Notes under the pieces: model-generated
Databases searched by the model: none
Seen by the model: only the letters and a program-made list of their open reading frames with translations
Told to the model about the DNA's origin: nothing
Part shown: one piece after another, positions 40,227 through 41,843 of the stretch
Numbering within the stretch: position 1 is the stretch's first letter
Layout of the letters: each line of letters opens with the position of its first letter
Made by a program: the position numbers and the translations under genes
Assembly (NCBI GenBank): GCA_011364965.1
Contig: RDOB01000006.1
Span: forward strand, 64,001 to 128,000
Source: Candidatus Heimdallarchaeota archaeon
GTDB lineage: Archaea; Asgardarchaeota; Heimdallarchaeia; Hodarchaeales; Hodarchaeaceae
Length of the DNA: 64,000 nt
Direction: 5' to 3'

Positions 40227-41066
40227 CTATGCCAAATCTAATGGAAATAGTAGATTAATCGTATTTTGAGTTAACCAGGCTCTTCCGTTGAAATAAGCTG
40301 CAATATAGGATATGTAATGAGGGATCAGAGGATAATTTTTCAGTTTTGATAGACAAGTATCCTCTGGTATGCTTATACCAATGGATGCTGTCACTGGATT
40401 GATAATATTGAATTCTAGAAATATTTCCTCTGATTCTAACCATACAAGAAGAGTCGTTAGGAAATTTTTAAGGAAAAAATAATTCCCGAGAAAATTTAAA
40501 CTATTTTGTTTAAAAATTGATGGATTAAAGGGTAGATGGAAGTTAAGATGGATTTGACTAGGATTTGGGGTAATTAATCCATCTTGGATAATCTGTATAA
40601 GAGACGTTGAGTAAATTTCAGGAGGAGAAGTTAATAGTTGAATGAAATCAGATGCTATAAGAGTTGCAACTTTCTGACGTTTGCAGGATTGTATTACTGT
40701 CCTAATCATTTCTGGAGTGTTTTGATTATTTGAAATCAGGTATGATCCTAACTCAATTGTATGCGATGCTGTCCGTAATTCATGAATTATAAGATCCATC
40801 CACGGTTTATTTCTTTCAGAATGGGAGAAATGGGTTGGATTTACAAATATAAGTTTTGGAAAGCCTGAAATTGAAGTTTGAAAGAATGTCAAGTTAGAAT
40901 TTTTGATTGTAGCCACTGGAATTGATGGTGTGGATGGATGATAACCTGAAATCATTGCAAATACCTGAGAATAGTAAAGAACTTCATCGAAATTTGAGGA
41001 AAGAATACATAGTGGATTAAAAGGCAGAGTATCCCACTGACGGAGTCCTGACTCGGAGATGATCAG
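40227..41066 (-). CDS. PAS-like + HisKA + degenerate HATPase protein (histidine pseudo-kinase/phosphotransferase-like)
   Basis: Frame open from CTG at 41066 (after GGAGGTG) through the listed ATG at 40955; PLCILSS..EVLYYSQVFAMISGY (PAS-like), IIHELRT (H-box), SIGISIPED and IAAYFNGRAW...LLFP (CA remnants). Confidence 0.6.
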   Translation of the reverse strand: MIISESGLRQWDTLPFNPLCILSSNFDEVLYYSQVFAMISGYHPSTPSIPVATIKNSNLTFFQTSISGFPKLIFVNPTHFSHSERNKPWMDLIIHELRTASHTIELGSYLISNNQNTPEMIRTVIQSCKRQKVATLIASDFIQLLTSPPEIYSTSLIQIIQDGLITPNPSQIHLNFHLPFNPSIFKQNSLNFLGNYFFLKNFLTTLLVWLESEEIFLEFNIINPVTASIGISIPEDTCLSKLKNYPLIPHYISYIAAYFNGRAWLTQNTINLLFPLDLA

Positions 41067-41273
41067 ACACCTCCCTTTAGGAATTGTGAAGTATCTTGAC
41101 AGATGATATTATTGCAACATCCTATTTGGTTACCCCCATAGGTTTTCAAAAATCCCACTTGATGGAGTCCTGACTCAGAGATAATCAAACACCTCCTTGT
41201 ATGAATTCAGAATTATCTTGACAGATAATATTATTCTTGAATTCTAACCGTTTATTGCCATAGGTTTTTAAAA
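41031..41273. repeat. Diverged tandem duplication, unit about 121 bp, two copies
   Basis: 41031-41151 vs 41152-41273 share ATCCCACT, GGAGTCCTGACTC, ACACCTCC, TATCTTGACAGAT and CCATAGGTTTT in register. Confidence 0.92.
41063..41188 (-). CDS. 41-aa chimeric mini-ORF created by the duplication
   Basis: TTG start after GGAGGTG, overlapping the upstream stop; MIISESGLHQVGFLKTYGGNQIGCCNNIICQDTSQFLKGGV; its stop overlaps the CTG start of the next gene. Confidence 0.55.
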   Translation of the reverse strand: MIISESGLHQVGFLKTYGGNQIGCCNNIICQDTSQFLKGGV

Positions 41274-41527: not shown

Positions 41528-41677
41528 TTAATTTCCAGTGGGTGGAGGGGGAGGAATCAGTGTAGGGTCAGCTATACCGAGAGTGGTTTGGAGGAGAAAA
41601 AGTGTAACAAGGAACACAATAGGAATTAATTTTTGAAATATAGTCTTTTTATTCCATTTAAATATGGATTCTTTCAT
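41528..41677 (-). CDS. Secreted micropeptide precursor (signal peptide + DPTLIPPPPPTGN)
   Basis: Basic N-region, hydrophobic LIPIVFLVTLFLL core, GIA cleavage-like site, 13-aa Pro-rich tail; likely start ATG 41677. Confidence 0.6.
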   Translation of the reverse strand: MKESIFKWNKKTIFQKLIPIVFLVTLFLLQTTLGIADPTLIPPPPPTGN

Positions 41678-41843
41678 GGATTTTAAAATTAGCAAATTTA
41701 AACTCACCAAATAATATTTCATTTGATGAAAATTCATTTGGTGTTTTTTTTCTAAAATGGGATAGGAAATAAAAATGACAATATCAAAATTTTTTTTTGA
41801 CGTCTAATAGGTTAGATTAAGAGAAAAACATAGGGTTACTCAG

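Follow-up and report, generated by a model that had tools for sequence, protein, structure and literature searches.

Can a frame of 49 codons that encodes little beyond a signal-like sequence be a gene, and, if so, does its product shed its short proline-rich end outside the cell or keep it at the membrane? The frame lies in the window, a 64,000-nucleotide stretch of contig RDOB01000006.1 from a Candidatus Heimdallarchaeota archaeon. A sequence-only reading had proposed that cleavage after G-I-A yields a secreted polyproline-II peptide suited to an extracellular signal or, alternatively, that the chain stays uncleaved as a single-pass membrane micropeptide. Here, we report the family, the gene neighborhood and the possible fate of this peptide.

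Peptide gene

The minus-strand reading, MKESIFKWNKKTIFQKLIPIVFLVTLFLLQTTLGIADPTLIPPPPPTGN and then TAA, runs from a basic N-region through a 20-residue hydrophobic span ending in G-I-A to DPTLIPPPPPTGN and the stop (Table 1). The proline run had been described as a GC-rich patch in AT-rich surroundings, and this was borne out, as were the frame and the five Pro codons: local GC content was 0.35-0.40 at the peptide gene (200-nt windows) versus 0.215 in the 200-nt window just upstream. Genome-wide (34.8% GC), frames of at least 150 aa, 853,519 residues in all, contained only three runs of at least five prolines; because such runs are rare in the genome and two paralogous peptides of like build are found there, the feature is more than chance.

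The start of the window frame is not certain. Alternative in-frame ATGs at 41722 and 41737, both inside the inverted repeat, would give 64 or 69 aa; judged by alignment, the N-region length of the family fits the 49-aa form only. The window copy has no GGAGG-like Shine-Dalgarno sequence. Many orthologues carry GGAGG ~8-10 nt before the peptide start, and a common promoter-like block, TTCATTAAnnTTTCTA, stands 60-75 nt before it.

TABLE 1 Features of the locus, in window coordinates
Feature	Position	Strand	Remarks
HELRT cargo protein, ~279 aa	40227..41066	minus	Invariant HELRT (H-box-like) motif; ~280-300 aa in syntenic orthologues
41-aa frame	41063..41188	minus	Partial duplicate of the 110-aa gene 3' end; tandem duplication 41031-41273
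Small triad protein, 110 aa	41185..41517	minus	10 nt 3' of the peptide stop
Peptide gene	41528..41677	minus	49 codons + TAA
Peptide n-region, aa 1-16	41630-41677	minus	MKESIFKWNKKTIFQK, first segment of the reading MKESIFKWNKKTIFQK / LIPIVFLVTLFLLQTTLGIA / DPTLIPPPPPTGN
Hydrophobic span incl. terminal G-I-A, aa 17-36	41570-41629	minus	LIPIVFLVTLFLLQTTLGIA, middle segment of the reading, 20 residues
Tail, aa 37-49	41531-41569	minus	DPTLIPPPPPTGN, then TAA
Pro5 run	41540-41554	minus	Five Pro codons
Divergent intergenic region, 166 nt	41678..41843		Between peptide and double-Lrp genes; TATA-like block and inverted repeat
Inverted repeat, 23 nt, imperfect	41700-41722 / 41726-41748		78% complementary, 3-nt loop
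Fused double Lrp/AsnC-like protein, 480 aa	41844..43286	plus	N-terminal helical domain of ~130 aa

Peptide family and selection

Thirty-three homologues of 44-56 aa were read (21 aligned members of subfamily 1 and 12 of subfamily 2), all from one Asgard genus and three of them from the window's own genome, where a six-frame search placed the two paralogues (51 and 48 aa) on contigs 11 and 14. The alignments of the two subfamilies are linked by hhalign (95% probability, E 2e-8). A profile of the three own-genome peptides matched 40/41 genomes searched in the genus at E<=1, with 3-11 matches per genome at that threshold (three clear copies in the window's genome), always inside open frames of about 50-70 codons. 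Only ten such peptides (44-69 aa) occurred in a large protein database, where the entry of 69 aa corresponds to the window frame begun at the upstream ATG; six members bear a name and are "hypothetical protein" entries from metagenome-assembled genomes labelled Heimdall-, Hod-, Hermod- or Promethearchaeota.

The family plan is a basic n-region of 15-23 residues (net charge, +3 to +8) with conserved KPxK and LK(I/L)(I/V)P(L/W) motifs (KPxK...LK(I/L)(I/V)PL in the subfamily-1 alignment), a hydrophobic span ending in L-G-x-A and a tail of 8-17 residues, the stop following at that distance in all 33 homologues. The alignment agrees with the earlier description of a gene that is almost wholly an export or anchor sequence of the n-h-c type with a short tail added. 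Leaders are conserved and tails differ between paralogues. Pairwise dN/dS of orthologues was 0.18-0.68; by part, pN/pS was 0.07-0.49 in the hydrophobic span, the best-conserved part, 0.22-0.76 in the n-region and 0.53-0.82 in the tail, where values below 1 indicate weak purifying selection and the comparison gave no sign of diversifying selection.

Because 33 homologues keep a conserved stop position under purifying selection and no longer homologue was found, the 49-codon frame is, by this comparative evidence, a real conserved gene, neither a chance frame nor a truncation. The sequence-only reading had named conservation of the frame and the length of its relatives as the points to check; searches of related genomes returned the same ~50-aa protein and not a longer one. 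That the frame is non-functional, a chance frame or the leftover of a longer gene, is scarcely credible: it is very short, and the window copy has an ambiguous start and no obvious Shine-Dalgarno sequence, but the 33 members, their conserved stop position and their purifying selection stand against such an origin, and several members had already been called hypothetical proteins by NCBI annotators. A truncated gene or pseudogene was considered separately and rejected on the uniform length of the homologues read and on the empty search for longer proteins, the latter being weak evidence.

The polyproline fared differently. Tails of syntenic orthologues (DPTTTPPNP, DPGSSPPVPD, PPSSGPPGPTP) hold only PP, and those of subfamily 2 are rich in Gly, Ala and Ser (e.g., VVAGPNGSLID); a polyproline-II ligand, as had been proposed, is therefore not the defining property of the peptide. 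PPP is absent from 11/21 aligned subfamily-1 members, 7 of which are syntenic orthologues of the window locus, and from all of subfamily 2. As far as these alignments reach, the Pro run is a feature of some copies only and not a family hallmark.

Conserved triad

At every locus examined (13-kb loci, tblastn and ORF clustering), three genes stood in the same order: a divergent double Lrp protein of ~480-500 aa, the peptide and then, 10 to ~60 nt on, a protein of ~90-130 aa. By gene order, the peptide gene heads an operon and belongs to an invariable set of three. The triad appears genus-restricted; the literature searched gave no description of it and no paper on peptide signalling in Asgard archaea. 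Searches of Pfam, NCBIfam and PADLOC with the triad partners returned nothing above cut-off. Outside the window but in its genome, a fourth triad-type pair was observed, in which a 50-aa subfamily-2 peptide (G000:C15:141511-141660; L042:4511-4660:+) with the tail TGDPKRPAVD is divergent from a 491-aa double-Lrp paralogue, and a YbjQ-family gene downstream replaces the usual ~90-aa partner.

The profile of the 480-aa protein matched archaeal Lrp/AsnC regulators in two places (positions 136-259 and 319-435), with E 1e-5 for PH0140, an Lrp-type regulator of archaea (9w4v; 7fby), and E 1e-3 for LrpA. An AlphaFold (AF2) model (pLDDT, 86; pTM, 0.85) had NirDL (4ch7; E 6e-9), itself a fused protein with a double Lrp fold, as its top Foldseek match, followed by dozens of Lrp/AsnC regulators. 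The model and profiles together describe two fused wHTH+RAM (Lrp/AsnC) units preceded by an additional helical domain at the N-terminus; the protein is probably a transcription regulator, but because NirDL, the best structural match, is an enzyme with an Lrp fold, "regulator" is used here as a presumptive name. The protein was found in 20/20 genomes of the genus (1-5 matches each) and appears essentially restricted to it.

The small triad protein was modelled (AF2) as a helix followed by a beta-beta-alpha-beta-beta sandwich (pLDDT, 73.8; core, 87-95). Comparison with PDB sequences and folds returned generic alpha/beta sandwiches only (best Foldseek E 0.016), the best VIA Z score was 6.8, to designed proteins, and an ESM Atlas search gave no usable lead. 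By profile comparison (hhalign E 2e-6), the small triad protein has a homologue in the ~90-aa protein of subfamily 2. The family had 42 representatives among 1.84 billion proteins and was found in 15/20 genomes of the genus; 280 other genomes of the phylum gave one marginal match (E 2.4e-4), in a 320-aa frame. Of two further entries (P0016 and P0045), one, a representative of 204 aa, had two copies of the domain, and the other, a 2632-aa protein, had eight weak partial matches to the ~100-aa family.

The inverted repeat lies just 5' of the peptide start, and its conservation in orthologues was not obvious; it may serve the Lrp-like protein as an operator or form a hairpin at the 5' end. On the other side of the gene, several orthologues (L015, L016, L017, L021, L025 and L030) have T7-T10 tracts right behind the peptide stop, ahead of the next gene; these may be archaeal terminators, in which case a short transcript of the peptide gene alone would result. 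In the window copy, the spacer is only 10 nt long and lacks a T tract. Read-through or frameshifting into the 110-aa gene was rejected, as the spacers of the paralogues range in length from 10 to ~60 nt and differ in sequence as well.

The same region bears on whether the frame is a regulatory leader, in which an aIF5A-dependent stall at the Pro run would control translation or transcription of the downstream genes. In bacteria, ribosomes stall strongly at PPPPP, DP and PPG, the window frame ends 10 nt before the next start, and oligo-T tracts follow the stop in orthologues. The general layout also recalls SecM, MifM and VemP, in which an N-terminal export or anchor element and a C-terminal Pro segment lie upstream of a regulated gene. 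A stalling role is nonetheless highly improbable: the 11 subfamily-1 members (7 of them syntenic orthologues) and the subfamily-2 members noted above lack PPP, conservation lies in the N-region and hydrophobic span and not in the C-terminus, and the Pro run comes only 5-8 residues after the helix, far too close for an export element to emerge from the stalled ribosome or for force sensing of the SecM/MifM type. In addition, the distance to the next gene is variable and the mRNA has no special structure (fold z = -1.1); an Rfam search at the window locus found no family, and no terminator-like hairpin was found in the window.

Variable cargo

The genes behind the triad vary by copy and include an H-box protein, PAS kinases, Rag/Rab-like GTPases, longin-like proteins and an ABC/FtsX transporter; compared across loci, the picture suggests a fixed regulatory core with changing signalling outputs. 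Behind paralogous triads (L032 = G000:C11:559000-572000, L036 and L040) lie a Rab-like GTPase, a 462-aa protein whose GTPase domain is Gtr1/RagA-like (Pfam E 2e-17), PAS-HisKA kinases, response-regulator fusions and an FtsX permease with two ABC ATPases; in some triad copies, a wHTH protein accompanies the permease and the ATPases.

In the window, the cargo is the HELRT protein, which has no Pfam family; the only PDB profile match of its family is the DHp region of CpxA (E 0.009), and it may be a degenerate histidine-kinase-like protein. Family homology reaches ~37 codons upstream of the first ATG/GTG/TTG (first ATG at 40955), which implies a non-canonical start for this gene. Orthologous loci (L033, L035 and L037) have a 145-aa longin-like gene before the HELRT gene, at the place of the 41-aa duplicate, so the window operon copy, on this comparison, is a remodelled one that lost the longin-like gene and holds a duplicated fragment instead.

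Cargo and synteny also bear on whether the peptide is a membrane-active small toxin or a bacteriocin-like product with immunity or regulation genes as neighbors. It is small, hydrophobic, multi-copy and lineage-specific, and an ABC transporter is among the cargo of some copies. The partners, however, are a regulator and signalling cargo, not immunity or lysis genes; PADLOC matched neither regulator nor cargo and gave the 110-aa partner one marginal match (PDC-S11; E 0.0038), and loci of the window type are in stable synteny with housekeeping neighbors, a helicase and a DinB-family protein. We regard a toxin as very improbable indeed.

Retained helix or cleaved signal

Our tentative reading is that the frame encodes a ~50-residue, membrane-retained micropeptide, N-in/C-out, that would act with the regulator and the small partner; we infer the topology, the membrane retention and the contacts among the triad proteins. 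In 13/22 subfamily-1 members scored, exactly 20 residues lie between the last basic residue and D/P, and Kyte-Doolittle 19-residue means are 2.0-3.0 (2.25 in the window peptide). As in single-pass and tail-anchored proteins, a segment of spanning length lies near the C-terminus with positive charges on its N-side. This span is the most conserved part of the chain, which runs counter to the usual fast evolution of disposable signal peptides. The n-region is long and bears motifs, versus mostly shorter n-regions (and h-regions of 10-16 residues) in ordinary signal-like N-termini of the same genome, a crude survey that is suggestive only. Pro stands at +1 after Ala in 7/21 aligned subfamily-1 members, and signal peptidases disfavour Pro at +1.

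Several features of the same residues also suit a cleavable Sec signal. A basic n-region is followed by an h-region whose hydrophobic core is 13 residues long in the window peptide (family range, 9-20), and G-x-(A/S/T) follows polar residues in nearly all 21 aligned members (T-L-G-I-A in the window). Relative to that Ala, the window peptide has Asp at +1 and Pro at +2, which signal peptidase allows; in the members with Pro after Ala, a cut after Gly would avoid it. Two or three members (L012, L017) have Arg or Lys within the 20-residue span, after 13 hydrophobic residues, a pattern closer to a 13-residue h-region with a c-region than to a transmembrane helix. The retained helix is further weakened by a conserved core that encodes no membrane partner, and by a putative regulator whose best structural match is the enzyme NirDL. 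An archaeal class III (pilin-like) signal was rejected: there is no conserved G or A before the span and hence no [KR]-[GA] site, and true pilin-like N-termini in the same genome look unlike the peptide family.

Because the span is the most conserved part and has a fixed length of 20 residues in most members, the n-region is long and Pro occurs at +1 in about a third of the members, the uncleaved single-pass micropeptide, the alternative offered by the sequence-only reading, is slightly preferred over a released peptide. Cleavage after G-I-A is not supported in the form proposed, given the members with Pro at +1; the small-x-small G-x-A ahead of the tail is indeed present in most members, and cleavage there is possible but unproven.

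If cleavage does occur, the first 34-36 residues would be a Sec signal, and a cut after G or G-x-A would free a Pro-rich peptide signal of 13-15 residues, sensed outside or re-imported and bound by the RAM-type domains of the double Lrp-like protein, in what would be a counterpart in archaea of the Rgg/SHP or Rap/Phr cassettes. This is possible, if doubtful. The n/h/c layout and the conserved G-x-A speak for it, as does a precursor that is "almost only a signal peptide": Phr and SHP precursors consist almost only of signal peptide. The peptide and regulator genes diverge, as they do in Rgg/SHP; each genome has several matches, with conserved leaders and differing tails; a T7-T10 tract after the gene would give an abundant short transcript in several orthologues; and some copies have an ABC/FtsX transporter as cargo. 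Against a released signal, about a third of the members have Pro at +1, the hydrophobic part and not the tail is the most conserved, and the tail gives no sign of diversifying selection. The candidate receptor has no TPR-type peptide-binding fold, the conserved core has no importer or external sensor, and the role of the ~100-aa partner would go unexplained. The further proposal that the triad is an archaeal peptide-signalling cassette, in which the released tail (or the tail with part of the helix) is recognised by the double Lrp/RAM protein, is judged unlikely.

Proposed mechanism

For the preferred membrane-retained micropeptide, the build would be a strongly basic cytoplasmic N-region, one 20-residue helix and a Pro/Gly-rich tail of 8-17 residues outside the cell. 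Since the whole 49-residue chain would be finished before the helix leaves the ribosome tunnel, its membrane insertion (or export) would be post-translational, as for tail-anchored proteins. As the membrane-bound member of the triad, the peptide would use its conserved helix and basic N-region to hold or modulate the soluble partners at the membrane, and thereby set how active the Lrp-like regulator is at the divergent promoter that the genes share, which in turn would govern expression of the variable signalling genes behind the triad. The short tail would be the sole exposed outer part and may be where an external cue or a protease acts. With its invariable place beside the regulator and the small protein, the peptide gene is a candidate for peptide-linked gene control in archaea.

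Comparison with known systems

By analogy, the triad layout would work most like the Rgg/SHP or Rap/Phr cassettes of Bacillota. It shares with both a very short precursor consisting mostly of a basic and hydrophobic export sequence and several diverged copies per genome, and with Rgg/SHP a peptide gene divergent from an adjoining cytoplasmic regulator at every locus inspected. It differs in its archaeal host, in a partner with a fused double Lrp/AsnC fold instead of a TPR fold, in its third invariable protein of ~100 aa and in having no Opp, PptAB or Eep equivalents linked to it. On account of this fold, the third conserved protein and the absence of linked transport and processing genes, it is not classed as a member of the RRNPP group.

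Small single-pass bacterial membrane regulators such as MgrB and SafA, which bind membrane sensor kinases, offer a second likeness: about 50 residues, one transmembrane helix, a tiny extracytoplasmic tail and a gene among signalling genes. They have no sequence relation to the peptide, however, and the conserved partners of the triad are predicted to be soluble, with a kinase-like cargo that varies. Tail-anchored proteins likewise combine a basic N-part in the cytosol with a single hydrophobic helix close to the C-terminus (8-17 residues from it in the peptide), and the peptide chain, like theirs, would be too short for co-translational targeting; unlike them, it has a cytosolic part of only 15-23 residues and no folded domain.

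Annotation routinely overlooks very small genes or labels them "hypothetical"; the one described here is a conserved, multi-copy partner of a lineage-specific regulator and heads operons for kinases, Ras-superfamily GTPases and longin-like proteins in Asgard archaea, the host lineage being the closest to eukaryotes. To our knowledge, peptide-based cell-cell signalling has not been described in archaea. If the cassette proposal were true, the diverged paralogous triads, with 2-5 regulator copies per genome and three clear peptide copies in the window's own, would be separate "channels", each switching a different signalling output, be it an H-box protein, PAS kinases, Rag/Rab-like GTPases with longin proteins or an ABC exporter. 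In a peptide-reading protein of the Lrp/RAM type, a regulator fold that is very common would, if true, have been put to a new use. Were the peptide to control the regulator, whether as a membrane tether or as a released signal, it would provide a concrete, testable entry into how Asgard archaea sense their surroundings.
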